DNA of 64,000 nucleotides from Deltaproteobacteria bacterium (GTDB lineage: Bacteria; Myxococcota_A; UBA9042; DTJE01): NCBI GenBank assembly GCA_029547805.1, contig JAKPOP010000010.1, positions 209,675 to 273,674 of the forward strand. Direction: 5' to 3'. The notes under the pieces were generated by a model. The model saw only the letters and a program-made list of their open reading frames with translations, did not search any database and was not told the DNA's origin. The translations under genes and the position numbers were made by a program. Below are positions 36,261 to 60,714 of this stretch, one piece after another (position 1 is the first letter of the stretch; each line of letters starts with the position of its first letter).

Positions 36261-36293
36261 GGCGCCTCCTCCATCGACCCGACCTGAGGCATT

Positions 36294-43000: not shown

Positions 43001-43011
43001 GGCGGCTCCCC

Positions 43012-44082
43012 TCATGGAGCGGCGTCGGCGGCGCAGCGGAAGCCCACGTCCGGCCGGACCTGGTCCAGGGACCATTTCTGGCTCCGGTCCACGGTCCGGG
43101 CCCGGCAGATGTTGTTCTTGTTGGTCAGGAAGTTGCCCCCCCGGACCGCCACCTCGGTCCCGGAGGTGACCCGAAGCACGTCGGGCGACTGCTCGCCCTG
43201 ATACTGGATGCAGCGGGGCAGGCCCCTCGGGGCGAACACCGCCGCGGAGCACTGGGTGAAGCAGGCGTCACCGGCACTCTCGCAGGCGGGGCACTGGGTG
43301 TAGCAGTCCTCCTTGCAGGCGGCCGTCAGACAGGCGAAGCAGTCGCAGGACTCCGGGAGGGCATCCCGGCAGGTCAGGTTCTCCCGCCAGCGGTTGTCCA
43401 CCCACTCCGACACGTTGCCGGTCAGGTCCCAGATCTTCCGGTCCCCCTCCAGCACCCAGTCGTCGGCAGACCCTTTCACCGGATTGGGCCGCTGGACCCC
43501 CGTGCAGGCCAGCATCGCCACGTTCAAGGACTCGGCCGGACACTTCTCCAACGGCTTCGCGCCGTTCTGGATGGCCGACCGGCGCTTGTCGGCCTCCTCG
43601 CCTGCAAGGCCCGCCGCAGCCCGCTCCCACTCCACCTCGGTGGGCAGACGGCGACCGAGAAACTCGCAGTACTGCCGAGCCTGCTCCTGGGTGACCCCGA
43701 AGACCGGGTAGTCGTCGAAGTCAGGATTGCCGAAATAGTCCTCGACGCCGGTGGTGCCGGTGATCTTCGGCTCGGTGCAGGCCCCCATCTCGACGCAGTA
43801 GCGGTACTGGAAGTTGGTGACCTCGTGCTCCTCGATCTGGAAGGGCGGCAGGTTCACGAGGACGGTCGGCCAGGCCTTCTTGAGCCCGGCAGGGTCCCGG
43901 TTCTGCTCTGCGTCCTTGCACTGGATGGGGGTCTCGCCGATATTGAAGCACGTCTCGGTGCTCCCGAACAGGAACAGGCCCCCGGCAATCGGCACCAGAG
44001 GAGTGGGGTCCGGCGGCTTCACGCCGGTCACGCAGCCCCCGAACGCCCACAGGATCGTCGTCCACGTGAGTTGTCGACGCAT
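43012..44082 (-). CDS. Formylglycine-generating-enzyme (SUMF1/FGE-sulfatase) domain lipoprotein with Cys-rich insert
   Basis: Lipoprotein signal MRRQLTWTTILWAFGGC. FGE-like motifs ..FQIEEHEVTNFQYRYCVEMGAC.., ..GNVSEWVDN.. and ..RGGNF... A Cys-dense segment CDCFACLTAACKEDCYTQCPACESAGDACFTQC is inserted. GAGGAGGAG RBS. Confidence 0.75.
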   Translation of the reverse strand: MRRQLTWTTILWAFGGCVTGVKPPDPTPLVPIAGGLFLFGSTETCFNIGETPIQCKDAEQNRDPAGLKKAWPTVLVNLPPFQIEEHEVTNFQYRYCVEMGACTEPKITGTTGVEDYFGNPDFDDYPVFGVTQEQARQYCEFLGRRLPTEVEWERAAAGLAGEEADKRRSAIQNGAKPLEKCPAESLNVAMLACTGVQRPNPVKGSADDWVLEGDRKIWDLTGNVSEWVDNRWRENLTCRDALPESCDCFACLTAACKEDCYTQCPACESAGDACFTQCSAAVFAPRGLPRCIQYQGEQSPDVLRVTSGTEVAVRGGNFLTNKNNICRARTVDRSQKWSLDQVRPDVGFRCAADAAP

Positions 44083-47281: not shown

Positions 47282-48049
47282 ATGCGCCCGGTCCCTCTGG
47301 TTCTGCTGGCGTGCTGCCTCGCGGCACTCTCCTGTGGCCTGGTGGACGACTACCCCACCGGCCTGGGCCAGGGGGCCCTCCCGGGAGACCCGTTGTACCC
47401 GAAGCCGGACCCGGGTCCCTCGGGATGCGCGGTCCCGACCGATCCGGGGACCTCCGATGTCCCGGACCTGGCGGTGTCCGACCTGTCGGGCATGGCCTGG
47501 CGATTCGACGCCCTGGCCCTGGGCCGGCCCCTGACGGAAGACCTGCTGCCCCTGGTGAACCAGGTCGTCGCGGATCAGGTCTCCCAGCAGCAGTTGAACC
47601 TGCTGCTGGCGGTGGACCAGGACGACCGGGAGGCCGGTACGCTCCGGGGCCGGGTGGGCACCGCCACCCCGAACCAGGATGCCTGGGCCTTCCAGGGGAC
47701 CCCCTCGGAGGTGAGGCTGGGACTGGATCGCTCCCGCTTCCAGTCCACCGACGAGTCCTCCCTGAGCATCTCGGTCGCCATCGGGACGGATACGCTGACG
47801 CTGCCGATCCAGGCCCTGCGCCTGTTCGGGGCCTTCCCCTCCGACGCGACGACGATCGGGGATGGCCGCATCCAGGGCGCCATCACCGTCGAGGATGCAG
47901 CGCAGGTGTCGATCCCCCTCTACGGGACCCTCCAGGTGCTGATGGAGACCAACGAGGTCCCGCCAGACACCACCGTCGGCCCGGATCGGAAACCGGCCTG
48001 GTCCTTCGAGGCGACCTTCACCGCGGTGAAGGTCCCCCTGGCCCCGTGA
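47282..48049 (+). CDS. Hypothetical lipoprotein
   Basis: MRPVPLVLLACCLAALSCG lipobox. Coding-like composition. The upstream 379 codons of the track ORF are antisense to pssA. Confidence 0.6.
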   Translation: MRPVPLVLLACCLAALSCGLVDDYPTGLGQGALPGDPLYPKPDPGPSGCAVPTDPGTSDVPDLAVSDLSGMAWRFDALALGRPLTEDLLPLVNQVVADQVSQQQLNLLLAVDQDDREAGTLRGRVGTATPNQDAWAFQGTPSEVRLGLDRSRFQSTDESSLSISVAIGTDTLTLPIQALRLFGAFPSDATTIGDGRIQGAITVEDAAQVSIPLYGTLQVLMETNEVPPDTTVGPDRKPAWSFEATFTAVKVPLAP

Positions 48050-48074: not shown

Positions 48075-49178
48075 ATGAGACGCCCCCCTTCCAGGCTCGC
48101 CGGAATCCTCCTGGTGGTCCTCTGGGCCTTCTCGGCCACCGGCCTGGCCCGGATGAAGACCGAGACCACCGGGGCCGCGGTGCAGCCCACGACCCGGACG
48201 GACTTTCTGCGTCATCCCCACGACTCCAAGTACTACACCGAGTCGTGGACCATGATCCTCCAGTCCGAGGAAGGGCACATCCTCTACGTCAACTTCATGT
48301 ACAGCAACATCGGGGTGACCTCGGGCCGAAGCGCGGTGAGCGTGAACCTGACGATGCCCGGGGGCCAGGGGAAGCCCTATGGCTGGGAATACGACCAGGA
48401 CGACTATCGCGAGGATTTCGACAAGAACACGCTGACCATCGGCCCCCACGCCCTCACCCTCGATGGCCGGACCGCGACCTTCCGGGTCGAGGGGTCGGAA
48501 CTCCGTCTCCACGGCACCCTCCGTGGCTGGAACAACGGCGTCAAGTTCCACGGCGGTCGGATCTGCCTGGACGACGGCTGCAAGGACTTCGTGCAGTCGT
48601 TCTTCCATGTCCCCCGGGGGGACTTCGAGGCGGACCTGTCGGTCGCCGGCCAGCGCCTGCGCCTGAAGGGCGCCGGCTACCTGGACCACATGGTGAACAC
48701 CGAGATGAGCAGCAAATGGTCCTCCCACTGGTGGACCGTCCGGTATTTCCACAAGGACTACACGGTGGCCCTGCTGGCCTTCCGCCCTCGGAAGGACTAC
48801 GGGTCAGGCACCATCCTGCGGCTGCTGTTCGCCGACCGGAACCGGGTGCTGGCCCTCACGGACCGCTTCACCCTGGAGACGGACCAGGAGGCCCGGGACC
48901 CCTCCAAGAAGGGACACTCCTACGCCACGAGATACCGGATCGAGGTTCCCCTGCCCAAGGGGTCCCTCCGGGGCCTCTTCACGGGCCGGCGGGTCCATGA
49001 GCGGGACGCCGTGCTGGAGCGCCTGCCCTGGGCCCAGCGGACGATCGCCCAGGCGGTGGCCGGAAATCCGGTGATCTATCGTCAGGAGGGCACCCCGGAC
49101 CTGGTGCTGGTGTTGGATGACGACACCGAGGTCCACCTCTCCGAGGGCACCGCCCTCATGGAGTCCATCGTCAACTGA
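48075..49178 (+). CDS. Hypothetical secreted protein (possible lipocalin/AttH-CrtC-like fold)
   Basis: Signal peptide MRRPPSRLAGILLVVLWAFSATGLA. The beta-rich, Trp/Tyr-rich sequence has no decisive motif. Confidence 0.6.
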   Translation: MRRPPSRLAGILLVVLWAFSATGLARMKTETTGAAVQPTTRTDFLRHPHDSKYYTESWTMILQSEEGHILYVNFMYSNIGVTSGRSAVSVNLTMPGGQGKPYGWEYDQDDYREDFDKNTLTIGPHALTLDGRTATFRVEGSELRLHGTLRGWNNGVKFHGGRICLDDGCKDFVQSFFHVPRGDFEADLSVAGQRLRLKGAGYLDHMVNTEMSSKWSSHWWTVRYFHKDYTVALLAFRPRKDYGSGTILRLLFADRNRVLALTDRFTLETDQEARDPSKKGHSYATRYRIEVPLPKGSLRGLFTGRRVHERDAVLERLPWAQRTIAQAVAGNPVIYRQEGTPDLVLVLDDDTEVHLSEGTALMESIVN

Positions 49179-49275: not shown

Positions 49276-49304
49276 TTGACGGCCCGAGTGGTCTTGGTTA
49301 GCGT
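49276..49304 (+). promoter_or_regulatory. Putative promoter (TTGACG-17nt-TAGCGT) inside an unusually AT-rich island with ATTGA direct repeats
   Basis: The stretch 49240-49300 (caaaaaccttcctattgaaatcatttatttttccattgacgg) stands out from the 70+% GC background. It is 60-90 bp upstream of the respiratory-module operon. Confidence 0.3.
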
Positions 49305-49363: not shown

Positions 49364-50005
49364 ATGGATGGCTTTCTCTCCTTCCTCTCGGGACCGCTGT
49401 TCCGATTCTGCCTGACGGTGGCGATCCTGGGGGTCCTGTCCCAGTTCCTGCAGAACGCGATGATCCTGGTCGCCACGGATCCGGGCCGCCCCTTCCGGGC
49501 GCTGGGGCAGGGTCTGCGACGCTGGATGGACCCCGTCACGCGTACCCGCCGCAACCCGTGGTGGGTCGAGGTGCTGGTCTGGGCATCGGTGGCCGGGGTC
49601 GTCGTGGTGCCCCTCTTCTACCTGGGCCATGCCCGCCTCTGGGGACGGTCCCTGGGCCTGCTGTGGCCGGCGGTCCCGGCGGCCTGGTCCGACGTGCTGA
49701 CCCGGGTCACGATGGTCACGTTGGGCCTCCTGTTGCTGGCCCGCCTGCTGGACCGGTCGGTCCGGCGGTCCTGGACCCTGGTGGACTGGGGCCCCCTGGT
49801 GCTGGCCTGGACGGCCTTCGTGACCGGCTATCTGGTCGCCCACCCGGGCCGCAGCCCCTTCGCGCCCGACACGACGGCCCTGCTGCACTTCCTGTCGGCG
49901 GACCTGTTGCTGGTGCTGCTGCCCTTCACTCGGGTCTCCCGGTGCGTGCTGATGCCGCCGCCCTGCGAGGGATCGGCCCCGACGACCCCGGAGGTGACGC
50001 GATGA
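49364..50005 (+). CDS. Integral membrane protein (4-5 TM), first gene of the respiratory module; possibly a NarI/DsrM-like haem-b subunit
   Basis: GGAGG RBS. Hydrophobic helices carry conserved His (YLGHARLW, YLVAHPG, LLHFL). The stop overlaps the next start (ATGA). Confidence 0.55.
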   Translation: MDGFLSFLSGPLFRFCLTVAILGVLSQFLQNAMILVATDPGRPFRALGQGLRRWMDPVTRTRRNPWWVEVLVWASVAGVVVVPLFYLGHARLWGRSLGLLWPAVPAAWSDVLTRVTMVTLGLLLLARLLDRSVRRSWTLVDWGPLVLAWTAFVTGYLVAHPGRSPFAPDTTALLHFLSADLLLVLLPFTRVSRCVLMPPPCEGSAPTTPEVTR

Positions 50006-50802
50006 AGGCCATCCTGACTGACGTGACCCTCTGCATCGGGTGCGAGCGCTGTGTCGATGCCTGCCGCATGGCAAACGACCTCGGGCCCCAGTTGCCCTTC
50101 CGGTGGCTGTTGGAGGACGGACTCTCATCGGAGCGCTGGTGCAGCGTCCTTCGGAAGGAGGACCACTTCGTGCGGCGGCAGTGCATGCACTGCATCCAGC
50201 CCGCCTGCGCCTCCGCCTGCCCGGTCGGTGCCCTGCAGAAGACCGCCGAAGGCCCGGTCATCTACGACGACAAGAAGTGCCTGGGCTGCCGTTACTGCAT
50301 GATGGCCTGCCCCTTTGGGATCCCCCGATACTCCTGGGAATCCCCGATCCCCCTGGTCCGCAAGTGCCAGATGTGCTTCCAGAACCGGGTCTCGAAGGGC
50401 CAACAGCCCGGCTGCACGGCCGCCTGTCCGGTCAAGGCCACCATCTTCGGAGAGCGGGAGGACCTGCTGGCCGAGGCCCATCGGCGCATCCAGGAGAACC
50501 CTGACCGCTACCAGGGAAAGGTCTTCGGCGAGACGGAGGTGGGCGGCACCTGCGTGCTGTATCTGGCCCCCTTCGACCTGAACATGCTGACCCTGGGCAA
50601 CCGACTGGACGAACGGCCGATGCCCGAGCGAACCGTCTACGCGATGACGGCGGTGCCACCGGTGTTCCTGACCATGGGGGCGGTGATGACCGGCATCTGG
50701 TGGGTGATCGACCGCCGGATGCAGCGCCAGCGGGAACAGGACGCCGCCAGGCGCGACGGACATGCCGAACCCACCTCCCCCGATGATGGAAAGGAGGGCT
50801 GA
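50002..50802 (+). CDS. HybA/DmsB/NrfC-type 4x[Fe-S] ferredoxin subunit with C-terminal TM anchor
   Basis: CIGCERCVDAC, CMHCIQPACASACP, CLGCRYCMMACP and CQMCFQNRV..CTAACP cluster motifs. Terminal helix AVPPVFLTMGAVMTGIWWVI. Confidence 0.85.
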   Translation: MKAILTDVTLCIGCERCVDACRMANDLGPQLPFRWLLEDGLSSERWCSVLRKEDHFVRRQCMHCIQPACASACPVGALQKTAEGPVIYDDKKCLGCRYCMMACPFGIPRYSWESPIPLVRKCQMCFQNRVSKGQQPGCTAACPVKATIFGEREDLLAEAHRRIQENPDRYQGKVFGETEVGGTCVLYLAPFDLNMLTLGNRLDERPMPERTVYAMTAVPPVFLTMGAVMTGIWWVIDRRMQRQREQDAARRDGHAEPTSPDDGKEG

Positions 50803-50805
50803 GCG

Positions 50806-52656
50806 ATGACGACCACTCCTCCGACAACGGGCGCCCCGCTGCAGACCCGGCGCCTCAAGAACGTGAAGGCCCTGCTCTGGTTCCTGGTCGGGATGGCAGC
50901 CTCCTTCGCCCTCTTCCGGTTCTGGCGGGGCATGGGCGCCACGACGAACCTCACGGACCTGACCCCCTGGGGCTTCTGGATCGGCTTCGACGTGATGGGT
51001 GGCGTCGCGCTGGCCGCCGGCGGCTTCGTGATCGCCGCGACGGTCTATGTCTTCCACCTGGAGCGGTATCGCCCCATCCTGCGCCCTGCAGTGCTGACCG
51101 CCTTCCTGGGCTACCTGGCGGTGGTCGTGGGCCTGCTCTTCGACCTGGGCCTCCCCTGGCACATCTGGCACCTGATCATCTTCTGGAACCCCCGCTCCCC
51201 GCTCTTCGAGGTGGGCTGGTGCGTGATGCTCTACCTGACGGTGCTGCTGCTGGAGTTCCTGCCGGTGGTGCTGGAACTGGCGAAGCACCCCGTGTTGTCC
51301 CGGATCTACCACGTGCTGAAGAAGGCGACGGTCCCGCTGGTGATCCTCGGGATCATGCTCTCGACGCTCCACCAGTCGTCCCTGGGCTCGCTGCTGCTGA
51401 TCATGCCCCACCGGATCGACCCTCTCTGGTACTCGCCGATCCTGCCGATCCTGTTCTTCCTGTCGGCGGTGGGCCTGGGGCTGATGATGGTGACCACCGA
51501 GTCCCTCTTCTCGGCCTGGGTCTATGAGCAGCACTACGAACTGGACCTCCTCCAGGGTCTGGCCAAGGTGGCGGCGCCGGTGCTCTGGCTCTACGGGGCG
51601 GTCCGGATCGGGGACCTGGCCTGGCGAGGGTCCCTGGGCCACGTGCTGGACTCGGGTCTGGCGCCCAGACTCTTCGTCGCCGAGATGCTCATCGCGGTGA
51701 TCATCCCGGCGACCCTGCTGTCGATCCCCGCGACCCGCCGGTCGATGAAGGGGCTGGCCATCGCGGCGGGCATGACGGTGGTCGGGTTCGTCTTCAACCG
51801 GATCAACGCCGGGGGACTGGCGATGATCGAGACGACCGGCACCCGATACGTCCCGGCGTGGACCGAGTTCATCGCCTCCCTGGGGATCGTGGCCGGAGCG
51901 GCGCTGGTCTTCTTCTTCATCGCGGAGCGGTTCCACCTGCTGCCGGCAGGGCCCATGCGCCACGCCCGGGAGCGGCTGCCGAGTGTGGGGGAGTTCCGGC
52001 CGATGCTGAACCGGGGCGCGGCGATGTTCGTGTTCGGGACGGCCCTGGCCGTGATGCTGCTTCCGTCCTCGGCGCTGGACGGGTGGCCCGTGGTGGCCCA
52101 GCCGGTCCATGGTCCGGGCTACAACGACGTGATGATCATCGACGGCAACCGGAACGACAAGGGCGTGCGGTTCGACCACAAGATGCACCTGGACGTCGTG
52201 GACACTCAGGACAAGTGCGCCTACTGCCATCACATGGTGAAGCCCGGAGCCCACGCGACGGGCTGCAGCCAGTGCCACTCCGACGAGCACCTGCCGGTCA
52301 GCATCTTCAACCATCGACTGCACCAGGAGGCCCTGTCCAAGGGCCCGGGCTGCCTCACCTGCCACGAGGACACCTCCCGGCCCAAGGACCTGGAGCACTC
52401 GCGGCCCTGCCTGGACTGCCACCGGACGATGATTCCCGAAGGGGCGGCCTTCCAGCCCGCCGGGGCCCCCAACATTGGACTGGCGGTGGGGTACATGGAC
52501 GCGATGCACGGCCTCTGCCTGAAGTGCCACCAGGAGCAGGATGGAGGCCACGCGGGCGACGCCCCGGTGCTGTCCCGCTGCAACACCTGCCACTCGGGGG
52601 TGGTCCAGCCCTTCGACCCCCTGCGCCCGGACCAGCGACTCCGGGTGTCTCCCTGA
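50806..52656 (+). CDS. NrfD/PsrC-family quinol-interacting membrane subunit fused to a C-terminal hexahaem cytochrome c domain
   Basis: About 10 TM helices over 440 aa. They are followed by six CxxCH motifs (CAYCH, CSQCH, CLTCH, CLDCH, CLKCH, CNTCH) in the last 170 aa. Confidence 0.8.
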   Translation: MTTTPPTTGAPLQTRRLKNVKALLWFLVGMAASFALFRFWRGMGATTNLTDLTPWGFWIGFDVMGGVALAAGGFVIAATVYVFHLERYRPILRPAVLTAFLGYLAVVVGLLFDLGLPWHIWHLIIFWNPRSPLFEVGWCVMLYLTVLLLEFLPVVLELAKHPVLSRIYHVLKKATVPLVILGIMLSTLHQSSLGSLLLIMPHRIDPLWYSPILPILFFLSAVGLGLMMVTTESLFSAWVYEQHYELDLLQGLAKVAAPVLWLYGAVRIGDLAWRGSLGHVLDSGLAPRLFVAEMLIAVIIPATLLSIPATRRSMKGLAIAAGMTVVGFVFNRINAGGLAMIETTGTRYVPAWTEFIASLGIVAGAALVFFFIAERFHLLPAGPMRHARERLPSVGEFRPMLNRGAAMFVFGTALAVMLLPSSALDGWPVVAQPVHGPGYNDVMIIDGNRNDKGVRFDHKMHLDVVDTQDKCAYCHHMVKPGAHATGCSQCHSDEHLPVSIFNHRLHQEALSKGPGCLTCHEDTSRPKDLEHSRPCLDCHRTMIPEGAAFQPAGAPNIGLAVGYMDAMHGLCLKCHQEQDGGHAGDAPVLSRCNTCHSGVVQPFDPLRPDQRLRVSP

Positions 52657-52862: not shown

Positions 52863-54572
52863 ATGAAGAAGGCGACGGGCATCCTGGTGCTGGCAGCGAT
52901 GCTGGCGGCCTGCGCGAAGGAGGGAACGGTGGTGCGAGGCGACGGGAGGCAGGGCTCCCTGGAGGCGGAGGCGAGGACCTTCCTGGAGGGCTACAACCTC
53001 CGGCGGGCGGCACTTGAGAAGAAGGCCGCGGAGGCCTACTGGCAGGCGGCGAACAGCGGTCGGAAGGAGGACTTCGAGGCCTTCGCGGAGGCGGACCTGG
53101 CCACCCGGAAGTTCCACAGCGACCGGGAGGCCTATCGGACGGCGGAGCGGCTGCTGGCGGCCTCCGAGGGGTTCGACCCGGTGACCCGGCGGTCGCTGCA
53201 GGTGGTCCGGCTGGCCTACCAGGAGAACCAGTTGCCGCCGGAGATGCTGGAGGAACTGGTCCGGCGGTCGTCGGAGATCGAGCAGACGTTCAACACCTAC
53301 CGGGCGACGCTGGACGGGCGGGCCTGGTCCAACAACGAGTTGCTGGAGATGCTGCAGAAGACCACGGACTCGGCCCGCCGGCAGGCGATCTGGGAGGCCC
53401 TGAAGGGGGTCGGGGCGAAGGTGGGGCCGATGCTGCTGGAACTGGCGCAGGTCCGGAATCGGGCCGCGAGGATGCTGGGCCATGGGAACTTCTGGGAGAT
53501 GCGGATCCGGATGCAGGAGCACGACCCGGAGATGCTGCTGGCGATCTTCGACCGGCTGGAGCGGGACACGGAGACCCCCTTCAGGGAGATGAAGGCCCGG
53601 CTCGACGCGGAGGTGGCTGCCCGGCTGAAGGTGCCCGTGGAGGCGCTGATGCCCTGGCACTACGACAACCCGTTCTTCCAGGCGGCGCCGCCCTCGGCGA
53701 GGGTGGACCCGGACGTGTTCTATGAGGACAGGAAGAAGGAGGACATCGTCGCCATCGCGCAGCGGTTCTACGCCGACATCGGGCTGCCGATGGACGCGAT
53801 CATCGCCCGGTCGGACTACTACGAGCGGGAGGGCAAGGACCAGCACGCGTTCTGCACGGACATCGACCGGGCGGGGGACGTCCGGATGCTCCTGAACATC
53901 CGGCCCTCGGCGGAATGGATGGACACGATGCTCCACGAGGCGGGACACGCGGTCTATGCGGCCTACAACGACCCGTCGCTGCCCTGGGTGCTCCGGGACT
54001 CGGCCCACATCCTGACGACCGAGGGGGTGGCGATGCTGTTCGGGGCGCTGGGGCAGAACCCGACGTGGATGGTGGACTACGCGGGGGTGGACCGGGCCCG
54101 GGCGGAGGCGGCGGCAGAGGCGCTGTACGAGCAGCGGCGCCGGGAGCAGCTGCTGTTCGCCCGGTGGGACATGGTGATGTTCCGGTTCGAGAAGGCGCTC
54201 TACGAGGACCCGACCCAGGACCTGAACCGGCTGTGGTATGACCTGGTGGAGCGCCTGCAGCACCTGCGACGGCCGGCGGGGAGGGACCTGCCGGACTGGG
54301 CGGCGAAGCCGCACTTCACGATCGCGCCGGTGTACTACCACAACTATCTGCTGGGGGAACTGTTCGCGGCGCAGGTGCGGGCCCGGCTGGTGGAGATCGC
54401 GGGCCACCAGGGCCCGGCGGCGACACTGTCGTTCCGGGGCCGGAAGGACTTCGGGGCGTTCTTCCGCGATGCGGTGTTCCGGCCGGGCATGCGTTGGGAG
54501 TGGCCGGAGTTCGTCCGGCGGGCGACGGGGCGGCCGTTCGGTCCGGAGGCGTTCGTGGCGGAGGTCCGCTGA
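52863..54572 (+). CDS. Peptidase M2 (angiotensin-converting-enzyme-like) zinc metallopeptidase lipoprotein
   Basis: Lipobox LVLAAMLAAC. HEAGH with the third-ligand Glu (TTEGV) exactly 28 residues after the first His, as in ACE (HEMGH...E). Confidence 0.75.
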   Translation: MKKATGILVLAAMLAACAKEGTVVRGDGRQGSLEAEARTFLEGYNLRRAALEKKAAEAYWQAANSGRKEDFEAFAEADLATRKFHSDREAYRTAERLLAASEGFDPVTRRSLQVVRLAYQENQLPPEMLEELVRRSSEIEQTFNTYRATLDGRAWSNNELLEMLQKTTDSARRQAIWEALKGVGAKVGPMLLELAQVRNRAARMLGHGNFWEMRIRMQEHDPEMLLAIFDRLERDTETPFREMKARLDAEVAARLKVPVEALMPWHYDNPFFQAAPPSARVDPDVFYEDRKKEDIVAIAQRFYADIGLPMDAIIARSDYYEREGKDQHAFCTDIDRAGDVRMLLNIRPSAEWMDTMLHEAGHAVYAAYNDPSLPWVLRDSAHILTTEGVAMLFGALGQNPTWMVDYAGVDRARAEAAAEALYEQRRREQLLFARWDMVMFRFEKALYEDPTQDLNRLWYDLVERLQHLRRPAGRDLPDWAAKPHFTIAPVYYHNYLLGELFAAQVRARLVEIAGHQGPAATLSFRGRKDFGAFFRDAVFRPGMRWEWPEFVRRATGRPFGPEAFVAEVR

Positions 54573-54578
54573 GGGGCC

Positions 54579-55478
54579 TCACTCGTCGGGGTCGAAGAAG
54601 TCCCTCCAGGGGTCCACCCTTCGGAAGTACAGCGTCAGGAAGCCGGCGGAGACCACCCGGCGCACCATGCCCATGTCGTTTTCCTGGGTCCGGTGGAGGC
54701 GGGTGGCCTCGGCCATGAAGTGGGCGCAGGAGAGGCCCGGGACGGCCGGGAGGGAGGCGTCGAAGGTGTGGGTGACGGGGCCGGGGTCGCCGCCCCCGCC
54801 GAGTCGAAAGACCCAGAAGCGGTTCTGCTGGAGGATGGTCCGGGCGACCCGGTGGGGCGAGAGGCCGGGGGTCTCGAAGGTGGGATCGGCAGCCTGCCGG
54901 ACGGCGAGGACGGCCAGGCGGGCGGTGAGCTGGTGCTCGGGATGGCCGGTGGCGCCGACGTATGGGTCGAAGGTGACGAGGAGGTCGGGGCGGAAGTCCC
55001 GGATGGCGGTGACGATGTCCCGGAGGGGGTCTCCCTGGGCGCGCCAGCGGGCGAGGATCTCCCGGCGGGGCGGGAAGGAGGAGACGGGCAAGGGGGCGTT
55101 CCAGTAGCGGTGGTGGTAGAGGCGGGCACGGTACATGCGGGCCACCTGAGCCATCTCCCGCCCGCGAACGGTGGCGAGGTCGGGTTCGCACCCGTCGGGG
55201 AGGCCGCACTCGCCGCCGTCGCCGTGGGTCATGACGACGAAGGCGAGGGGGTTCCGGTAATGGATGGAGGCCCGTGCCAGGAGGCCCCCGGGGAAGCACT
55301 CGTCGTCGGGGTGGGCGGCGACCCACATGGTGCGGGCGCCGGCGGCCAGGACGTCGTCGAGGGGCGGGTCAGTGGGGTCGGGTCGGCCCCGGCGGTCGGC
55401 ACCACCGCATCCGGCAATGGTTGCGAGGGGCCACAGCCCGGCGGCGACGGCCCTCTGGAGGAACGTTCTCCGGTCCAT
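54579..55478 (-). CDS. PIG-L/LmbE-family N-acetylglucosaminyl deacetylase with Tat-like signal
   Basis: MDRRTFLQRAVAAGLW (RR-x-FL twin-arginine motif). LmbE motifs WVAAHPDDE and HPEH. Confidence 0.8.
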   Translation of the reverse strand: MDRRTFLQRAVAAGLWPLATIAGCGGADRRGRPDPTDPPLDDVLAAGARTMWVAAHPDDECFPGGLLARASIHYRNPLAFVVMTHGDGGECGLPDGCEPDLATVRGREMAQVARMYRARLYHHRYWNAPLPVSSFPPRREILARWRAQGDPLRDIVTAIRDFRPDLLVTFDPYVGATGHPEHQLTARLAVLAVRQAADPTFETPGLSPHRVARTILQQNRFWVFRLGGGGDPGPVTHTFDASLPAVPGLSCAHFMAEATRLHRTQENDMGMVRRVVSAGFLTLYFRRVDPWRDFFDPDE

Positions 55479-55547
55479 GGGTCACCTCCGCCGGGATTCT
55501 AGCCCAGTTGGTCCGGGAGGACCGGGGGCCAGGGGACCCGGGCGCGG

Positions 55548-56432
55548 GGCGTCGGGGGCGGGGGGACCGGGGGCGGGGGGACCGGGGGCGGGGGGACCGG
55601 GGGCGGGGGGACCGGGGGCCGGGCCTCCGGACTCGACGTCGCCCCGGGGGCGCTGCCCCCGGGGCGCGTCTGCGCCTCGGCGCGCGCGAGGGCATCGATG
55701 GCCCCCGCAAGGTCGCGCGCGCCTCCGGAGCGTCCTCCGGGCCCTGCCCCCGGCCGCCCCGATGTGACGCCGTCTGGGTCACCGGAGCGCGGGGGCTGGG
55801 AGAGGTCGACGGTGGATTGGGAGAAGTGGGAGAGAACGGGTGGGGGTGTGGACAGGGACGAGGATACGCCGGAGTGGGGACCAGGGAGGAGGCTTCCTGG
55901 GACGTCGGGGGCGGGGGGACCGGGGGCCGGGCCTCCGGACTCGACGTCGCCCCGGGGGCGCTGCCCCCGGGGCGCGTCTGCAACCTCGGCGCGCGCGAGA
56001 GCATCGATGGCCCCCGCAAGGTCGCGCGCGCCTCCGGAGCGTCCTCCGGGCCCGGCCCCCGGCCCCCCCCCGATGTGACGCCGTCTGGGTCACCAGAGCG
56101 CGGGGGCTGGGAGAGGCCGACGGTGGATTGGGAGAAGTGGGAGAGGACGGCTGGGGGTGTGGACAGGGGCACGGATACGCCGGTGTGGGGGCCAGGGAGG
56201 AGGCTTCAGGGACGTCGGGGGCGGGGGGACCGGGGGCCGGGCCTCCGGACTCGACGTCGCCCCGGGGGCGCTGCCCCCGGGGCGCGTCTGCGCCTCGGCG
56301 CGCGCGAAAGCATCGATGACCCCCGCATGGTCGCGCGCGCCTCCGGAGCGTCCTCCGGGCCCGGCCCCCGGCCCCCCCGATGTGGCGCCGTCTGGATCAC
56401 CAGAGCGCAGGGGCTGGGAGAGGTCGGCGAGG
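55548..56432. repeat. Three tandem direct copies (third truncated) of an about 310 bp non-coding repeat
   Basis: Copy 1 is about 55548-55900, copy 2 is 55901-56210 and copy 3 is 56211 to about 56432. They are nearly identical. Each contains the 9-bp inverted repeat CCCCGGGGG-cgctg-CCCCCGGGG and alternating CGCGCGCG tracts. The block lies in the 1 kb divergent spacer between the PIG-L deacetylase and sbcD genes. Confidence 0.85.
55559..55618 (+). repeat. 15-nt minisatellite (CGGGGGGACCGGGGG)x4 forming a run of about nine G5-6 tracts (G-quadruplex-prone)
   Basis: The unit is present once in repeat copies 2 and 3 but expanded to four units in copy 1. Confidence 0.85.
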
Positions 56433-56488
56433 AGTGGGCAAGGATGATGTCCCACCGCCGTGCAAGAATGAGGCGATCCCGGAAGGGG

Positions 56489-57646
56489 AGGGACAAGATG
56501 CGGATCCTGCAGACCGGCGACTGGCATCTGGGACGGCGGCTGAAAGGGCTGGACCTGCTGGAGGACCAGCGGTTCGTGCTGGAACAGGTGATCGAGCATG
56601 TGGAACAGGAGCGACCGGACCTGGTGCTCATTGCGGGGGACATCTATGACCGGGCGGACCCTCCGGCGGCGGCGGTGGACCTGCTGGACGAGGTGCTGTC
56701 CCGCCTGGTGCTGGACCTGCATGTGCCGGTGGTGCTGCTGGCGGGCAACCACGACAGCCCGGAGCGGCTGGCCTTCTGCTCGGGCATCCTGAAGCGCCAG
56801 GGGCTGCGAATTGTCGGGGAGATCCCCGAGGCACCGGAACCCCTCGTGCTGGAGGACGAGGCGGGGCCGGTGCACCTGTTTGCCCTGCCCTACCTGGACC
56901 CGGAGCGGGTCCGGGAGGGACTCGGCCGAGACGACCTGAGGGGCCACCAGGCCGCGATGGAGATCGTGCTGGATCAGGTCCGACGGCAATGCCACGCCGG
57001 GGTCCGGACGGTGCTGGCGGGCCATGCCTTCGTCCAGGGCGGATGCTCCAGCGAGTCGGAGCGGCTGCTGACGGTGGGCGGATCGGGAGCAGTGGATGCC
57101 TCGCTCTTCGAGGGGTTCGACCATGTGGCGCTGGGACATTTGCACCGGCCGCAGTCGGTCGGCCCACGAATCCACTACGCCGGGTCGCTGCTGGCCTACT
57201 CGATCTCGGAGACGGACCACTCGAAGGGCTTTCTGTGGGTGGACCTGCCGGCCTCGGGACCGCCATCGGTCGCCCAGGTGCCCCTGACGCCAAGGCGCCG
57301 GCTGCGTCGGGTCCAGGGGACCTTCCAGCAGGTGATGGACGGAGCCAGGCAGGATGAGGACCGGGAGGACCTCATCGTGGCGGTGCTGACAGACCCGGCA
57401 CCGGTCCCGGACGCGATCGGGCGCCTGCGGCAACACTACCCGAATACGTTGCACCTGGAATGGGAGGCGCTGGAGCACCCGGTCGGCGGCAGCACGGTCT
57501 CGAGAGAGGTGCTCCGGCTGGACCCGCTCTCTCTGTTCCAGCGGTTCTACCAGGAGGTCACCGGAAGGCCGATGGACGAGGCGGCCACGGCCCTGCTGGG
57601 CCCGGTGGTGGAACGGGCGATGCGGCCCGGGGAGGAGGCCCGATGA
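56489..57646 (+). CDS. sbcD: Exonuclease SbcCD, nuclease subunit D (Mre11-like)
   Basis: MRILQTGDWHLG.. and LIAGDIYD and LLAGNHD and GHLH phosphoesterase motifs. The stop overlaps the sbcC ATG (ATGA). Upstream parts of the 790-aa track ORF run through the repeats and are rejected. Confidence 0.9.
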   Translation, partial: RDKMRILQTGDWHLGRRLKGLDLLEDQRFVLEQVIEHVEQERPDLVLIAGDIYDRADPPAAAVDLLDEVLSRLVLDLHVPVVLLAGNHDSPERLAFCSGILKRQGLRIVGEIPEAPEPLVLEDEAGPVHLFALPYLDPERVREGLGRDDLRGHQAAMEIVLDQVRRQCHAGVRTVLAGHAFVQGGCSSESERLLTVGGSGAVDASLFEGFDHVALGHLHRPQSVGPRIHYAGSLLAYSISETDHSKGFLWVDLPASGPPSVAQVPLTPRRRLRRVQGTFQQVMDGARQDEDREDLIVAVLTDPAPVPDAIGRLRQHYPNTLHLEWEALEHPVGGSTVSREVLRLDPLSLFQRFYQEVTGRPMDEAATALLGPVVERAMRPGEEAR

Positions 57647-60600
57647 TCCCGATCCGACTGACGGTGCAGGCATTCGGACCCTACGTCCAGCGCCAGGTGG
57701 TGGACTTCGGGCCGGCCCGGGACGCCGGGGTGTTCCTGGTCCACGGACCGACGGGAGCCGGCAAGACCACGCTGTTCGATGCGATCTGTTACGCCCTCTA
57801 CGGGCAGTCGTCGGGGGCGGAACGGACCGACCAGCAGATGCGCAGCCAACTGGCGCCATCGACCCTGCGAACCGAGGTGGAACTGGAGTTCGCGCTGGGG
57901 GAGTGGCACTACCGCTGCTGGCGTTCGCCGACCTGGGATCGCCCGGCCCTCCGGGGCCAGGGGACCACGAAGGCCAAGGCGGAGGCCCACCTCCATCGAC
58001 GGCCCGCCGGCGGGACCGGGGAGTGGTCCCTGTTGCAGACGGGCGACGGCAAGGTCACGGAGGCCATCCAGGCGGTGTTGGGCTTCACGGCGGAGGAGTT
58101 CCGGCAGGTGATCCTGATCCCCCAGGGGCAGTTCCGGAGCCTGCTGGTCGCCGAGGTGAAGGATCGGGAGCACATCCTGGGCAACCTCTTCAATACGGCC
58201 CTCTACCGCCGCATCGAGGAGGAGTTGAAGGCCGAGACGGCCCGCCGGCAGACGGAATTCCGGACCCTCGAGGAGCGCCATCAGACCTTGCTCGGGACCG
58301 GCGACGTGGCGTCCCTGGAGGACCTGGAACAGCGGATACGGCAGCGGCAGGTCGAACTGGAGACGATGCAGGCGGGGGTGAAGCAGCGACGGGACAGCCT
58401 CCAGTCGGCCAGGGCTGCCGCCGAGGAGGGCCGGCGGGTCCGGGGGATCTTCGAGGAGGCCCGCCGGGCCAGGCGACGCCTGGAGGACCTGGAGCAGCGC
58501 CGTGAGGAGATCGGATCGCAGAAGGCCCTGCTGGAGAGGGCTCGCCGGGCCCTGACCCTGAACGACCTGGCCGATGGGCTGCATCGGCTGCGCCAGCAGG
58601 CCGAACAGCGCCGGGAGGACCTGTCGAGGGCGAACCGGGACCTGGAGGAGGCCCGGCTGGCGCTGGACCTGGCCCGGGACGGCCTGGAACGACAGCGGGC
58701 GAACGTCCCGGAGACCGAGGCGATGGAGCGGGCTCTGGTCGAGCTCAAGGAGATGGGACCGCGCCTCCAGGCCCTGGAACAGGCCGAGGGGGAGGTCCAG
58801 GCGGCGGAAGAACGGCTGACGGCGGCGGAGGAACGGCTCCGGGCGGCCCGGGAGGGCCTGGAGGCCCTGGAGCAGGAGATGCGGGGGCTGGACCGGACCA
58901 TCGAGGCCCTGGACCCCCTGGCCGAGGACAAGGCCCGACGGGGGTCGATCCGGGACCAGCAGGTCCAGCAGCGGAACCTCCGCAGGCGCCTGGGCGAACT
59001 GCAGGATCAGCACCGGACCCTGGAAAAGCGGCTTCAGCGGCAGGCCGACCAGGAGCGGATGGCCTCCGCCGGGCTGGAGCAGGCCCGTCGCACGCTGGAG
59101 GAGGCCCTGGAGGTCCAGCGTCGGGAGATGGCCGCGGTGCTGGCGGCCCGGCTGGTCCCGGGCGATCCCTGCCCGGTCTGCGGATCGACCTCCCATCCGG
59201 CCCCGGCCCCGATCCGGGAGAACCTGCCCGATGGGGCGCTGCTGGACCGCCTCCGGCAGGAGGCCGATGCCGCCGCGGAGACCTGGAAGGTCGCATCGGA
59301 CGAGATGCTGCGCATCCAGGAGCAGTGGAAGGCCCTGGGCCAGCGCATCGAGGAGATGGTCCAGGACCTGGGAGAAGCCGCCGGGGCCTCCCTGGAGGAA
59401 CTGGAGGCCCGCTGCCAGGAGGCCGAACAGCAGGTCCGGGAGGCGGAAGAGGCCGCCCGTCGGCTGGCCGAGGCCCGAACCCGGCGGCGGGAGGCGGAGA
59501 CCCGGCTGGAGCAGGGACGGGAGGTCCTGGAGGCCATCCAGGGTCAGGTCCAGGAGGCCCGGTCGGCCCGGGACCGGGCAGCGGCCCTCCGGCAGGAGCG
59601 GCAGGCCGGCCTGCCCCCGGGGAGGGACCGAGGGACCTGGGAACAGCAGGTCGCCGAGTCCCGCGCGGCCCTCGCGGCAAGGAAGCAGGCCCTGGAGAAG
59701 GCGGAACAGTCGTTCCGGGAGGCATCGGCCCGATGGACCGGTGCCGAGGCGCGTCAGACCGCGGCGGCGACCGAGTCCGATCGGACCGCATCGGAACTCG
59801 AGGAGATGGATCGTCGCTTCCAGGAGCGGCTCCGAGAGCAGGGCTTCATGACCCCCGAGGAGTGGTCGGCGGCGCGGCTGGCGCCGGATGGGCTGGCGGC
59901 CCTGGAGGAGCAGATCCAGGGCTGGGTGCGGGACGTGGTCCAGGCCCAGGGGGACGTGGACCGCCTGGAGGCCGGGGTGGCGGGTCTGCAGGAGCCGGAC
60001 GTGGCGGCCCTGGAGGCCGCCGAGGCCGAGGCCCTGGCAGGGCTGGAGGCGGCTCAGGCCGCCGCGGCCCAGGCGGTGGCGGACCAGGAGCGGGACCAGG
60101 ACCTGGCAACCCGGCTGCGGCAGGTCCAATCCGAGCAGAAGGCGATCGAGGAGAGGCTCCGAGGCATGGAGAGGTTGTCCGGGGTGGCCAGGGGCGAGAA
60201 CCCCGTCAAGTTGTCCTTCCACGACTTCGTGCTGGGCCTGCTGCTGGATCAGGTCCTGGAGGCGGCGAACCTGCGTTTGAAGGTCATGAGCCGGGGCCGT
60301 TTCCAGTTGTTCCGACGAAGGGTTCCGGCGGACCGCCGGAAGCGGGAGGGGTTGTCCCTGGACGTCGAGGACGGCTACAGCGGCAGCCTCCGGGCCGTGC
60401 ACACCCTGTCGGGCGGCGAGTCCTTCCAGGCGGCCCTGGCCCTGTCCCTGGGACTGGCGGACGTCGTGCAGCAGCGGGCCGGCGGCATCCGGCTCGAGAC
60501 CCTCTTCCTGGACGAGGGCTTCGGCAACCTGGACGCCGAGGCCCGGGAGGAGGCCTGGAACCACCTGGCGGAGATGTCCGGCCGCGAGGGCGGCCGCCTG

Positions 60601-60714
60601 GTGGGCATCATCTCCCACATGGAGGACCTGAAGGCCCTGTGTCCCCGGCGCCTCGAGGTCCGGTCCGGCCCCGCCGGCGCCACGGTCCGCTGGAGCCATG
60701 CCCCGGTCCCCTAG
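57643..60714 (+). CDS. sbcC: Exonuclease SbcCD, ATPase subunit C (Rad50-like)
   Basis: Walker A FLVHGPTGAGKTTLFDA. A long coiled coil has a central CPVCGS zinc hook. C-terminal signature LSGGESFQAALALSLGL and D-loop LFLDEGFGNLD. Confidence 0.9.
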   Translation: MIPIRLTVQAFGPYVQRQVVDFGPARDAGVFLVHGPTGAGKTTLFDAICYALYGQSSGAERTDQQMRSQLAPSTLRTEVELEFALGEWHYRCWRSPTWDRPALRGQGTTKAKAEAHLHRRPAGGTGEWSLLQTGDGKVTEAIQAVLGFTAEEFRQVILIPQGQFRSLLVAEVKDREHILGNLFNTALYRRIEEELKAETARRQTEFRTLEERHQTLLGTGDVASLEDLEQRIRQRQVELETMQAGVKQRRDSLQSARAAAEEGRRVRGIFEEARRARRRLEDLEQRREEIGSQKALLERARRALTLNDLADGLHRLRQQAEQRREDLSRANRDLEEARLALDLARDGLERQRANVPETEAMERALVELKEMGPRLQALEQAEGEVQAAEERLTAAEERLRAAREGLEALEQEMRGLDRTIEALDPLAEDKARRGSIRDQQVQQRNLRRRLGELQDQHRTLEKRLQRQADQERMASAGLEQARRTLEEALEVQRREMAAVLAARLVPGDPCPVCGSTSHPAPAPIRENLPDGALLDRLRQEADAAAETWKVASDEMLRIQEQWKALGQRIEEMVQDLGEAAGASLEELEARCQEAEQQVREAEEAARRLAEARTRRREAETRLEQGREVLEAIQGQVQEARSARDRAAALRQERQAGLPPGRDRGTWEQQVAESRAALAARKQALEKAEQSFREASARWTGAEARQTAAATESDRTASELEEMDRRFQERLREQGFMTPEEWSAARLAPDGLAALEEQIQGWVRDVVQAQGDVDRLEAGVAGLQEPDVAALEAAEAEALAGLEAAQAAAAQAVADQERDQDLATRLRQVQSEQKAIEERLRGMERLSGVARGENPVKLSFHDFVLGLLLDQVLEAANLRLKVMSRGRFQLFRRRVPADRRKREGLSLDVEDGYSGSLRAVHTLSGGESFQAALALSLGLADVVQQRAGGIRLETLFLDEGFGNLDAEAREEAWNHLAEMSGREGGRLVGIISHMEDLKALCPRRLEVRSGPAGATVRWSHAPVP

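Follow-up and report, generated by a model that had tools for sequence, protein, structure and literature searches.

A three-gene NrfD-hexahaem cytochrome locus in Myxococcota: a probable periplasm-facing quinone:cytochrome c module derived from a transmembrane electron conduit

Results

Gene content of the locus

We analyzed a DNA stretch of 64,000 nt from an uncultured myxobacterium (hereafter, the window), and our statements on absent genes cover these 64 kb. At 49364-52656 the window carries a three-gene module (g1, g2 and g3; Table 1), with all three genes where the initial annotation had placed them and in one orientation. Profile, motif and fold evidence also bore out the naming of its three parts as a small membrane protein, a HybA-like 4Fe-4S subunit and an NrfD-hexahaem fusion. 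GGAGG precedes g1, and the g1 stop is overlapped by the g2 ATG, as ATGA. The genes had been described as translationally coupled through this type of overlap; since g3 begins 3 nt after the g2 stop, the description applies to the g1/g2 junction only.

The predicted promoter sits 3' of a T-rich stretch. When the upstream regions of seven loci that lack the CCG gene discussed below were aligned, the -35 element kept TxGAC without variation, and the -10 element kept T116, T121, A122 and T126. A consensus promoter scanner did not call this site, and no sigma-54 motif was found upstream above chance.

The flanking genes encode a lipoprotein, an Svf1-like lipocalin and an M2/M3 peptidase. Among the other predicted long genes, those at 52863-54572, 55274-57646 and 57460-60714 encode this M2/M3 peptidase, an SbcD-like and an SbcC-like protein, the last two named from their translations only. 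No molybdopterin or hydrogenase protein was found among the flanking genes or in any of the 10 scanned ORFs of ≥498 aa elsewhere in the window, a scan to which the long gene at 41450-43252 did not belong. It had been noted that no catalytic molybdopterin or hydrogenase subunit lies nearby, and we likewise found no catalytic CISM or hydrogenase subunit in the window scans or adjoining the homologous operons. The window contains no CxxCH protein other than g3. A tblastn analysis showed no CCG, kinase or regulator genes in the window, and CCG-like sequence was absent even at E=10.

Table 1. Positions of the genes and features of the module in the window
Feature	Position	Strand	Description
Predicted sigma-70-type promoter	49276..49304	+	Inferred; TTGACG (49276-49281), 17-nt spacer, TAGCGT (49299-49304)
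g1	49364..50005	+	213-aa NarI/HmcE/TmcC-family membrane protein, 5 TMH; one periplasm-side haem b predicted
g1 Val76 codon GTG	49589..49591	+	Lost proximal-haem ligand site, equivalent to NarI His56
g1 His89 codon CAT	49628..49630	+	TM2; retained periplasm-side (distal) haem b ligand
g1 His175 codon CAC	49886..49888	+	TM5; retained distal-haem ligand, equivalent to E. coli NarI His187
g1 Arg193 codon CGG	49940..49942	+	Second lost proximal-haem ligand site, equivalent to NarI His205
g2	50002..50802	+	266-aa HybA/HmcB-like ferredoxin, four [4Fe-4S] motifs, C-terminal anchor, signal peptide absent
g3	50806..52656	+	616-aa NrfD protein, 11th helix, C-terminal c3-like six-CxxCH domain
g3 residues 1-381	50806..51948	+	NrfD/HybB/HmcC-type quinone-interacting domain; 10 TMH, N-terminus cytoplasmic
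g3 11th TM helix, residues ~400-426	52003..52083	+	Returns chain to periplasm; hydropathy; AF2 helix 394-418
g3 hexahaem domain, residues ~440-616	52123..52656	+	Periplasmic, c3/HmcA-like; Pfam Cytochrom_CIII, Cytochrome_C7

An NrfD domain fused to a hexahaem cytochrome c

Residues 50-333 of g3 belong to the Pfam NrfD family (PF03916; 68 bits against a cut-off of 25.8, 1.4e-18), and the NCBIfam models HmcC (2.5e-85) and HybB (9.1e-80) were matched over the full length, with HybB profile positions 6-376 of 377 colinear. The NrfD/PsrC family has a core of 8-10 TM helices, and g3 has the 10 helices of the HybB/ActC type and one extra. The four-cluster ferredoxin expected beside a member of this family is g2, immediately 5' of g3. 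The best fold matches of the membrane domain were ActC and ActF of alternative complex III; the AF2 model of g3 is of low confidence (pLDDT 62). The HybB residues D58, R89, Y99, D109, S129, E133, E148, E155, H184, S186, S187, E291 and R329 are conserved when g3 is aligned with E. coli HybB. The set assigned to the quinone site and proton path (D58, D109, S129, E133 and S190, with R89, Y99, E148 and H184), whose roles are summarized in PMC8076601, appears to be conserved in full.

An Arg-rich loop (residues 382-399) precedes the 11th helix, which is present in all family members. The g3 C-terminus had been read as a 170-aa extension with six CxxCH motifs. The six motifs are there (residues 471, 487, 516, 535, 571 and 592), but the extension is ~235 aa long, comprising a cytoplasmic linker, the 11th TM helix and a haem domain of ~180 aa. 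Because g3 has 11 TM helices and an N-in topology, this domain is predicted to be periplasmic. It scored 41.5 bits for Cytochrom_CIII (cut-off, 22.9), and its PDB profile matches were the 16-haem HmcA-type cytochrome 1z1n (6.7e-14) and many cytochromes c3. Among 23 homologues with identities as low as 45%, there is no variation in the six CxxCH motifs or in six distal His (458, 461, 476, 503, 506 and 568), and such a ligand set is evidently not due to chance.

A four-cluster ferredoxin without an export signal

The g2 protein matched Pfam Fer4_11 (7e-21) and the NCBIfam models HmcB (4.1e-70, from profile position 37) and HybA (2.1e-60, from position 41). Its 16 Cys, arranged in four cluster motifs, are invariant across 79 sequences, and a C-terminal membrane anchor spans approximately residues 214-236. 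Thus, g2 has the clusters and the C-tail of a HybA-type, Tat-dependent C-tail ferredoxin but not the twin-arginine leader. The Tat motif of E. coli HybA lies in a 38-residue N-terminal leader that is missing from g2, whose N-terminus lies at profile positions 4-6 of DmsB, QrcC and ArrB and at positions 37-46 of HybA, HmcB, DsrO and NrfC. Nowhere in the family did we find a Tat signal or N-terminal extension on the FeS subunit, and in many relatives in-frame stops occur 1-14 codons upstream of the FeS gene. There is also no signal-bearing partner within the operon. Given that both are lacking, the periplasmic location that we infer for g2 is unexplained. With its signal-less N-terminus, g2 may depend on an unlinked Tat-exported partner.

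A NarI-like subunit predicted to bind one haem b

The g1 protein had no match in Pfam, and its NCBIfam matches to TmcC (1.5e-22) and HmcE (2.6e-19) were both under the cut-off. Its AF2 model (pLDDT 85) has five long helices, and in a fold search the top eight PDB matches were all NarI (probability 0.85-0.99, TM-score ~0.46-0.49), so that g1 has a five-helix NarI-like fold.

In NarI, haem bP is ligated by H56 and H205, and haem bD by H66 and H187. Dihaem cytochromes b of the NarI/HmcE/TmcC/DsrM type have four His and two stacked haems; only two of the four His are left in g1. The position of His89 is His in 75/75 aligned family members and in 18/18 short-form database proteins, and that of His175, which a NarI profile alignment puts on H187, is His in 75/75. 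The equivalence of H89 to NarI H66 is ambiguous, as the spacing is 13 vs 10 and HMMER aligned H89 to NarI H74. At both lost sites, all 67 four-His proteins have His. The Val76 position is A/V/L/I in 8/8 CCG-less loci and 18/18 short-form proteins; the Arg193 position is Arg throughout the clade of the window and Ala in locus L022. The earlier description of g1 as 'haem-b-like' is right for the family and for the ligands of one haem, but both ligands of the cytoplasm-side haem are gone.

Against the closest relatives, dN/dS was 0.16-0.22 for g1 and 0.07-0.12 for g2 and g3. Thus, g1 is under purifying selection with relaxed constraint, and we regard it as functional.

A widespread four-gene operon and the linked losses

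The NrfD-hexahaem fusion family occurs in at least 458 species genomes from more than 10 phyla and comprises more than 100 protein clusters at 45-94% identity. Our literature search turned up no account of this family. In current databases, its members are named 'Ni/Fe-hydrogenase cytochrome b subunit' or 'polysulfide reductase NrfD'. Where upstream DNA was present, the gene order is almost always CCG protein, NarI-like subunit, FeS subunit and NrfD-hexahaem fusion. The CCG protein of these four-gene relatives is cytoplasmic and DsrK/HmcF-like (best match DsrK, 2.7e-84), and the usual neighbours of the operon are a PAS kinase, response regulators and a sigma-54 activator. Judging from these sequences, the module in the window is not an independent invention but a reduced form of this widespread operon.

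In a midpoint-rooted, unbootstrapped NJ tree without support values, the window groups with the CCG-less loci L007, L008 and L010-L014 in a single clade, which is nested among sequences of CCG-bearing Myxococcota and Anaeromyxobacter loci. Locus L022 is on a separate long branch, and therefore it may represent a second loss. In 26 sequences (8 CCG-less loci and 18 short-form proteins), the equivalents of NarI H56 and H205 are non-His, the other two His are kept, and a cytoplasmic C-terminal tail of ~25 aa is missing; four-His proteins keep all four His in 67 of 67 cases. CCG adjacency is not absolute, because locus L031 has the four His without an adjoining CCG gene. We suggest that the Myxococcota subclade of the window lost the CCG gene. 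As only 64 kb of the genome are visible, a CCG protein or other partner could sit elsewhere.

Discussion

Proposed mechanism and alternative explanations

On balance, we consider it probable that g1-g3 go back to a transmembrane conduit that was remodelled, and now form a periplasm-facing quinone:cytochrome c module. Our observations concern gene content, cofactor ligands, predicted topology, operon structure, correlated losses and purifying selection; the electron path, quinone specificity and direction outlined here are our interpretation. The ancestor would have been a transmembrane electron conduit of the Hmc/DsrMKJOP type, for which the cryo-EM structure of DsrMKJOP (bioRxiv 10.64898/2026.08.25.746951) provides the mechanistic template. 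By analogy, the NrfD subunit of the four-gene form would handle quinol at its periplasm-side site. Electrons would flow on through the ferredoxin with its four clusters and through the haems c, after which the NarI-like subunit would carry them across the membrane on its two haems b to the cytoplasmic DsrK/HmcF-like CCG protein. In the Myxococcota lineage, the CCG gene would have been deleted, and the NarI-like subunit would have shed the ligands of its cytoplasm-side haem and its cytoplasmic tail. The reduced module would exchange electrons only between the quinone pool and the periplasm, by way of the NrfD domain, with its quinone site and proton path apparently intact, the four [4Fe-4S] clusters and six bis-His haems c tethered to NrfD by the 11th helix. 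The single haem b of g1, beside the cytochrome domain, may be a side station or a structural partner.

The initial annotation had proposed a stand-alone menaquinol-to-periplasm conduit. A stand-alone, periplasm-facing module is indeed the best reading. As to direction, electron flow in the nearest characterized relatives (Hmc, Hyb and Qrc) runs opposite to the one proposed. Quinol oxidation to a periplasmic acceptor and quinone reduction by a periplasmic donor seem about equally likely.

Alternatively, an unlinked, Tat-exported periplasmic enzyme might use the three gene products as its membrane anchor and electron-transfer base, with g2 hitchhiking across the membrane as FdnH is taken across by FdnG, or a C-tail ferredoxin by its Tat [FeFe] hydrogenase. 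Candidates for such an enzyme are a hydrogenase, a formate dehydrogenase or a CISM-type subunit. The signal peptide is missing from g2 family-wide, its N-terminus starts as in the hitchhikers DmsB, QrcC and ArrB, and the nearest E. coli homologues of the module are HybA and HybB, all of which would fit this explanation. There is also a precedent in just such a pair, a signal-less C-tail ferredoxin with a HybB-like protein, adjoining a Tat hydrogenase (PMC10924467). However, no Tat-signal catalytic gene adjoined the operon where gene content was read across ~80 loci from more than 10 phyla, and Pfam scans of ORFs on either side of the operon revealed none, nor did the 10 long ORFs scanned in the window include one. 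In addition, the fused hexahaem domain already gives a periplasmic entry or exit for electrons, and therefore we think this explanation unlikely.

Less likely still is that the module remains a full transmembrane conduit of the Hmc/Dsr type, drawing on a cytoplasmic partner, CCG/HdrD-like or otherwise, whose gene lies elsewhere in the genome. The visible genome is 64 kb only, L031 keeps four His without an adjoining CCG gene, and g1 is under purifying selection. Against this, the cytoplasm-side haem ligands and the C-terminal tail are gone in 26/26 sequences; one haem near the periplasmic face would leave the membrane without a bridging redox centre, and the window also lacks the regulators found with the four-gene form. 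It is very improbable that the locus is a decaying, functionless remnant of a broken operon, even though the rate of g1 relative to g2 and g3 is approximately twice that in four-gene relatives and its identity to the L001 protein is 37%, vs 60-63% for g2 and g3. The three reading frames are intact. Every one of the 16 Cys and the 12 haem-c ligands is conserved, as are both distal haem-b His and the functional residues of HybB. Moreover, dN/dS is 0.07-0.22, the three-gene form has been kept in a clade whose g1 sequences are down to 49% identity, and promoter-like elements upstream are conserved.

Significance of the module

If the remodelling took place as proposed, the locus is a natural experiment, in which a cytoplasmic subunit was lost in one lineage-specific step together with the tail that probably bound it and precisely the two ligands of the haem that supplied it with electrons. 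These correlated losses support the electron path proposed from the DsrMKJOP structure, and the locus would illustrate how a transmembrane conduit becomes a periplasm-only quinone:cytochrome c module. Members of the parent four-gene family, which carry wrong names in databases, are common in uncultured Acidobacteriota, Zixibacteria, Ignavibacteria, Planctomycetota, Myxococcota and further groups. Recognizing the family would alter the respiratory annotation of many metagenome-assembled genomes. The signal-less ferredoxin poses a concrete, testable question of Tat export.

We also considered a more far-reaching reading, which we hold to be unlikely: that these operons are an unrecognized major Hmc/Dsr-like class outside sulfate reducers, with a ferredoxin that is periplasmic without Tat signal or partner, and with two same-side quinone sites in the derivative found in the window. 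If this were true, the ferredoxin would imply a new export route for folded FeS proteins, or a wiring unlike that of every solved NrfD complex. The orphan single-haem NarI-like subunit could then retain a working quinol site, and both quinone sites of the complex would face the same side.

Comparison with known systems

Alternative complex III (ActABCDEF) is a quinol:cytochrome c oxidoreductase built from NrfD, FeS and multihaem c modules. However, it has two NrfD-like subunits and no NarI-like subunit, its molybdopterin-like ActB1 domain bears a Tat signal, and sequence identity is 14-18%. QrcABCD shares a hexahaem cytochrome c, a signal-less four-cluster FeS protein and a 10-TMH NrfD-like subunit, and is periplasm-facing and quinone-reactive, but it needs the molybdopterin-like, Tat-exported QrcB, which is absent among the flanks and the ten scanned ORFs. 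The matches to its subunits were weak and well under the cut-offs (QrcA, 0.0034; QrcC, 3.5e-15, 56/400 bits; QrcD, 5.7e-33, 115/570 bits).

DsrMKJOP follows the same five-module plan, namely the NrfD-like DsrP with a periplasm-side quinol site, the four-cluster DsrO, the cytochrome c DsrJ, the NarI-like dihaem DsrM and the CCG protein DsrK. In contrast to the six CxxCH motifs and six invariant distal His here, DsrJ has three haems, one of them with His/Cys ligation, and is a protein of its own; DsrO carries a Tat signal, and the window has no DsrK-like gene. No dsr genes were seen here.

The resemblance to Hmc without identity, as initially proposed, is upheld: HmcB, HmcC and HmcE/TmcC were the best NCBIfam matches, all under the equivalog cut-offs (score/cut-off in bits: HmcB 236/420, HmcC 287/550 and HmcE 70/275). 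HmcABCDEF of Desulfovibrio/Nitratidesulfovibrio, whose module set is described in PMC10924467, has a periplasmic c3-type multihaem cytochrome, the four-cluster C-tail ferredoxin HmcB, the HybB-like HmcC and the NarI-like HmcE, and the wider fusion family also has an HmcF-like cytoplasmic CCG protein. It differs in that HmcA is a separate 16-haem protein, whereas here six haems are fused to NrfD through an extra helix, and g3 reached 28.7 bits against the 400 of the HmcA model. HmcD is absent here, the gene order of the family is F-E-B-C::A, and the Tat signal of the C-tail ferredoxin is missing (g2 begins at HmcB profile position 37). The window further lacks the HmcF-like subunit and one haem b, and the hosts of the fusion family are not sulfate reducers.

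Modules of a ferredoxin, a HybB/NrfD-like protein and a cytochrome c have been reported as Nhc, as tail-anchored ferredoxin modules (PMC10924467), as TMH1-DsrOhPh-tetrahaem in cable bacteria (PMC13047784) and as 'MK:cytochrome c oxidoreductases' in Methanoperedenaceae (PMC7327174). These stand-alone modules, like the one in the window, have neither a catalytic nor a cytoplasmic subunit and presumably link the quinone pool to periplasmic cytochromes. However, their cytochrome is a separate protein, their ferredoxin is Tat-signalled, and none has a single-haem NarI-like subunit; the state found in the window would have been reached by loss from a transmembrane complex.

The three-gene locus and its surroundings

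The locus consists of g1 (NarI/HmcE/TmcC-like), g2 (a HybA/HmcB-like ferredoxin) and g3 (an NrfD protein fused to a hexahaem cytochrome c), all on one strand. Coordinates, family profile matches and six CxxCH motifs confirmed this gene set, as proposed in the initial annotation. The ATGA coupling proposed with it was found at the g1/g2 junction and not at the g2/g3 junction, where there is a 3-nt gap. We also found no catalytic molybdopterin or hydrogenase subunit in the flanking genes or among ten scanned ORFs of at least 498 aa elsewhere in the window, as the same annotation had claimed, and no adjacent catalytic CISM subunit within the window. Apart from g3, no protein encoded in the 64 kb carries a CxxCH motif.

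Features of the three-gene locus and its surroundings in the window
Feature	Position	Strand	Remarks
MopE-motif protein gene	21214-25545		1443 aa; six MopE-type putative copper-binding motifs
2-oxoacid:ferredoxin oxidoreductase alpha-like gene	37779-39431	-	POR_N and PFOR_II domains; cluster 35661-39431
Lipoprotein gene	47285-48049		Upstream of g1; 254 aa, family unknown
Svf1-like lipocalin gene	48075-49178		Upstream of g1; 367 aa
g1	49364-50005	+	213 aa; good ribosome-binding site
g2	50002-50802	+	266 aa; ATGA overlap with g1; good ribosome-binding site
g3	50806-52656	+	616 aa; start 3 nt past g2 stop; good ribosome-binding site
M2/M3-type peptidase gene	52863-54572		Downstream of g3
PIG-L family deacetylase gene	54579-55478	-	Twin-arginine lipoprotein-like N-terminal signal (MDRRTFLQRAVAAGLWPLATIAGCGG)
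Long ORF	55274-57646		Traverses the tandem repeats
Tandem repeats	55514-56423		15-bp G-rich unit x7.3; 309-bp unit x2.7 at 94% identity; just upstream of SbcD/Mre11-like gene
SbcD/Mre11-like gene	~56440-57646
SbcC-like ATPase gene	57460-60714		Near tandem repeats

The lipoprotein and lipocalin genes are kept ahead of the operon in the window and in the homologous loci L007, L008, L010, L011 and L013 of other genomes. Both are missing in L012 and L014, where a CDP-alcohol phosphatidyltransferase gene directly precedes the operon, and we therefore rejected them as obligatory partners. A sigma-70-like -35/-10 pair is common to the upstream regions of the three-gene operons and is proposed as their promoter by conservation only. 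The search for sigma-54 promoters in the window gave no signal (15 matches against 16 expected), a consensus promoter and terminator scan returned nothing useful, and an Rfam scan of 48-57 kb had no match. Elsewhere in the window, three small genes downstream of the oxidoreductase alpha-like gene may encode its other subunits; since this gene is present, an anaerobic or microaerobic lifestyle of the host myxobacterium is hinted at.

A widespread four-gene family

The NrfD::hexahaem architecture occurs in more than 100 protein clusters of ~600-670 aa. When each species was represented by a single genome, a scan detected relatives in at least 458 of the genomes, including Myxococcota, Bdellovibrionota, Anaeromyxobacter, Acidobacteriota, Zixibacteria, Ignavibacteria, Planctomycetota, Poribacteria, Gemmatimonadota, Armatimonadota and further groups. 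A Myxococcota MAG, Go_SlDig_bin_299 (JAGOKF01), carries the closest relative of the window's g3 (96% identity), so the window is assigned to an uncultured myxobacterium. In databases the fusion proteins are named 'Ni/Fe-hydrogenase cytochrome b subunit' or 'polysulfide reductase NrfD'. Our literature search for an NrfD-cytochrome c fusion, its operon or a named family found no description; modules with separate ferredoxin, NrfD-like and cytochrome c proteins are well established (PMC10924467; PMC13047784; PMC7327174).

Gene neighbourhoods and tblastn at 80 loci revealed a conserved core in the order CCG protein (a cytoplasmic iron-sulfur subunit of ~450 aa), NarI-like protein (234 aa), ferredoxin and NrfD::hexahaem protein. 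A sigma-54 activator usually comes before this core, and a PAS histidine kinase and response regulators after it. The CCG protein matched DsrK best (2.7e-84), followed by TmcB and HmcF, and the family is therefore regarded as an Hmc/Tmc/DsrMKJOP-type transmembrane complex whose cytochrome has been shortened and fused. The window locus is a reduced form within this Hmc/Dsr-like family, which is widespread although undescribed. The initial reading of the locus as a stand-alone menaquinol-to-periplasm conduit is supported in part. The locus is of moderate interest for bioenergetics and for metagenome annotation.

Other genes recur around the four-gene operons. Small Nitro_FeMo-Co (NifX/NifB-like) domain proteins adjoin them repeatedly in distant phyla (L001, 13967-14395; L004, 4180-4587 and 6247-7002; L031, 5480-5845; and the homologous P0067 locus), in L031 together with Mrp/NBP35 and MinD-ferredoxin genes. 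In Myxococcota/Anaeromyxobacter-type operons the gene ahead of the CCG gene encodes a small HTH protein of excisionase/MerR-like type, Cys-rich at its C-terminus, which may be a redox-sensing regulator (L001, 6656-7132; homologues in L018-L020, L029, L030 and L087). MopE/VWA proteins lie near the L001 operon as well; their occurrence there and that of a MopE-motif protein in the window probably coincide by chance.

Probable loss of the CCG gene and of two haem ligands

With tblastn at permissive thresholds, neither a CCG gene nor the kinase or regulator was detected in the 64-kb window, and L007, L008, L010-L014 and L022 likewise lack all three. The NarI-like g1 sequence has no Pfam match, and its NCBIfam matches to TmcC (1.5e-22) and HmcE (2.6e-19) are both far below the equivalog cut-offs; it was modelled (pLDDT 85) as a bundle of five helices, for which every top PDB match is a NarI structure. 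Among 75 aligned NarI-like proteins, four histidines are invariant in 67, namely 66 linked to a CCG gene and that of L031. In all eight from CCG-less loci, precisely two of these histidines are lost, the other two remain, and a C-terminal tail of ~25 residues is missing. A database search with g1 added 18 short-form proteins (49-90% identity), all with the pattern aliphatic/His/His/Arg, and the next matches (35-40% identity, 234 aa) were all of the four-His type.

In NarGHI, His56 and His205 bind the proximal, cytoplasm-side haem, and His66 and His187 the distal, periplasm-side haem. When the four-His profile was aligned with E. coli NarI, the lost positions corresponded to His56 and His205, while His187 matched one of those retained. 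In window numbering, V76 and R193 stand at the lost positions, and H89 and H175 are the histidines that remain; the weak point of this assignment is the inexact alignment of H89 with NarI His66 (spacing 13 versus 10).

L031 (Phycisphaerales MAG, 2712-7201) is the exception, being the only locus found with a four-His NarI-like gene, here with the full tail, and no CCG gene upstream. FeS-assembly-type genes occupy the CCG position, a 100-N scaffold gap is nearby, and the sister genome carrying L028 has the CCG gene.

In a neighbour-joining, midpoint-rooted tree, the CCG-less g3 sequences of the window group form one clade, which branches from within the CCG-bearing sequences of Myxococcota, Anaeromyxobacter and Polyangia; as this tree has neither support values nor an outgroup, the polarity read from it is provisional. 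L022 may represent a second, independent loss, because it lies on a separate long branch and its replacement residues differ from those of the window group. Decay of the three-gene operon was rejected given the dN/dS values of 0.07-0.22 (closest pairs: g1, 0.16-0.22; g2, 0.07-0.12; g3, 0.07-0.09). In four-gene relatives, the relative rate of g1 is about equal to those of g2 and g3.

Predicted topology of g3 and missing signal of g2

Pfam identified an NrfD domain and class III cytochrome c domains in g3, and the membrane part matched NCBIfam HmcC (2.5e-85) and HybB (9.1e-80), far under the equivalog cut-offs. The haem-motif search bore out the hexahaem assignment, giving CxxCH at residues 471, 487, 516, 535, 571 and 592. 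Transmembrane prediction gave 11 helices both by hydropathy and in an AF2 model (pLDDT 62, with higher confidence in the membrane region and too weak for statements on the haem domain). Ten of the helices correspond to those of HybB/ActC-type NrfD proteins; the additional one, at about residues 400-426, follows an Arg-rich loop. The closest folds are those of ActC and ActF from alternative complex III. The six CxxCH and six further histidines are invariant across 23 homologues, down to 45% identity, which implies six bis-His haems; the haem domain is closest to the 16-haem HmcA-type cytochrome and cytochromes c3.

Given the basic N-terminus and the need for the periplasm in haem c attachment, g3 is placed N-in/C-out. 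In this predicted topology the NrfD core is oriented as in HybB, with the ferredoxin-binding, quinone-proximal face towards the periplasm. The quinone-site and proton-path residues listed for E. coli HybB (PMC8076601), namely D58, R89, Y99, D109, S129, E133, E148, E155, H184, S186, S187, E291 and R329, are conserved in the alignment of g3 with HybB.

The four-cluster ferredoxin g2 matched NCBIfam HmcB (4.1e-70) and HybA (2.1e-60), far below the equivalog cut-offs, and no signal peptide was found on it. Its start lies 5-10 residues ahead of the first cluster in 79 of 79 sequences, and many loci have in-frame stops 1-14 codons upstream. The C-terminal anchor of E. coli HybA is conserved, whereas its 38-residue Tat leader is absent from g2. 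A near-invariant RR past the anchor helix was rejected as a reverse Tat signal because E. coli HybA carries the same RR. Known C-tail ferredoxins that lack a signal hitchhike on a Tat-exported partner (PMC10924467), and no such partner is encoded in or near the family operons. For this reason we retain, as a distinctly improbable explanation, docking of a Tat enzyme encoded elsewhere in the genome onto the three-gene module; such an enzyme would supply the partner that signal-less g2 calls for. In the most speculative reading, the missing signal would point to an unknown export route.

The PIG-L gene is syntenic with the operon in the window, L007 and L012, and the L012 homologue (10953-11948) matches Pfam TAT_signal. 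The protein is an implausible redox partner, and as an export partner of g2 it was rejected, there being no rationale and no conserved neighbourhood.

Comparison with known complexes

According to the DsrMKJOP cryo-EM preprint (10.64898/2026.08.25.746951), the NrfD-like DsrP binds quinol close to the periplasm, within 8 Å of a DsrO cluster, and electrons pass from the DsrJ haems through the DsrM haems to DsrK; DsrM contacts the cytochrome on the periplasmic side, and the NarI-type quinol site of DsrM itself is blocked, for which arginine and TMH3-loop features are reported. By analogy, the four-gene form would wire the quinone pool and the periplasmic haems to the cytoplasmic CCG active site. 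In the reduced window form, the cytoplasmic route would be interrupted three times over, through loss of the CCG subunit, of the proximal haem and of the tail, which would leave electron exchange only between quinone and periplasm. The retained distal haem b of g1 could then serve as a side station or as a structural partner of the cytochrome domain. For this putative complex, both directions of electron flow are compatible with the sequence. Among known systems, transfer runs towards quinone or the cytoplasm in Hmc, Hyb and Qrc, while Dsr, ACIII and CymA-like systems oxidize quinol.
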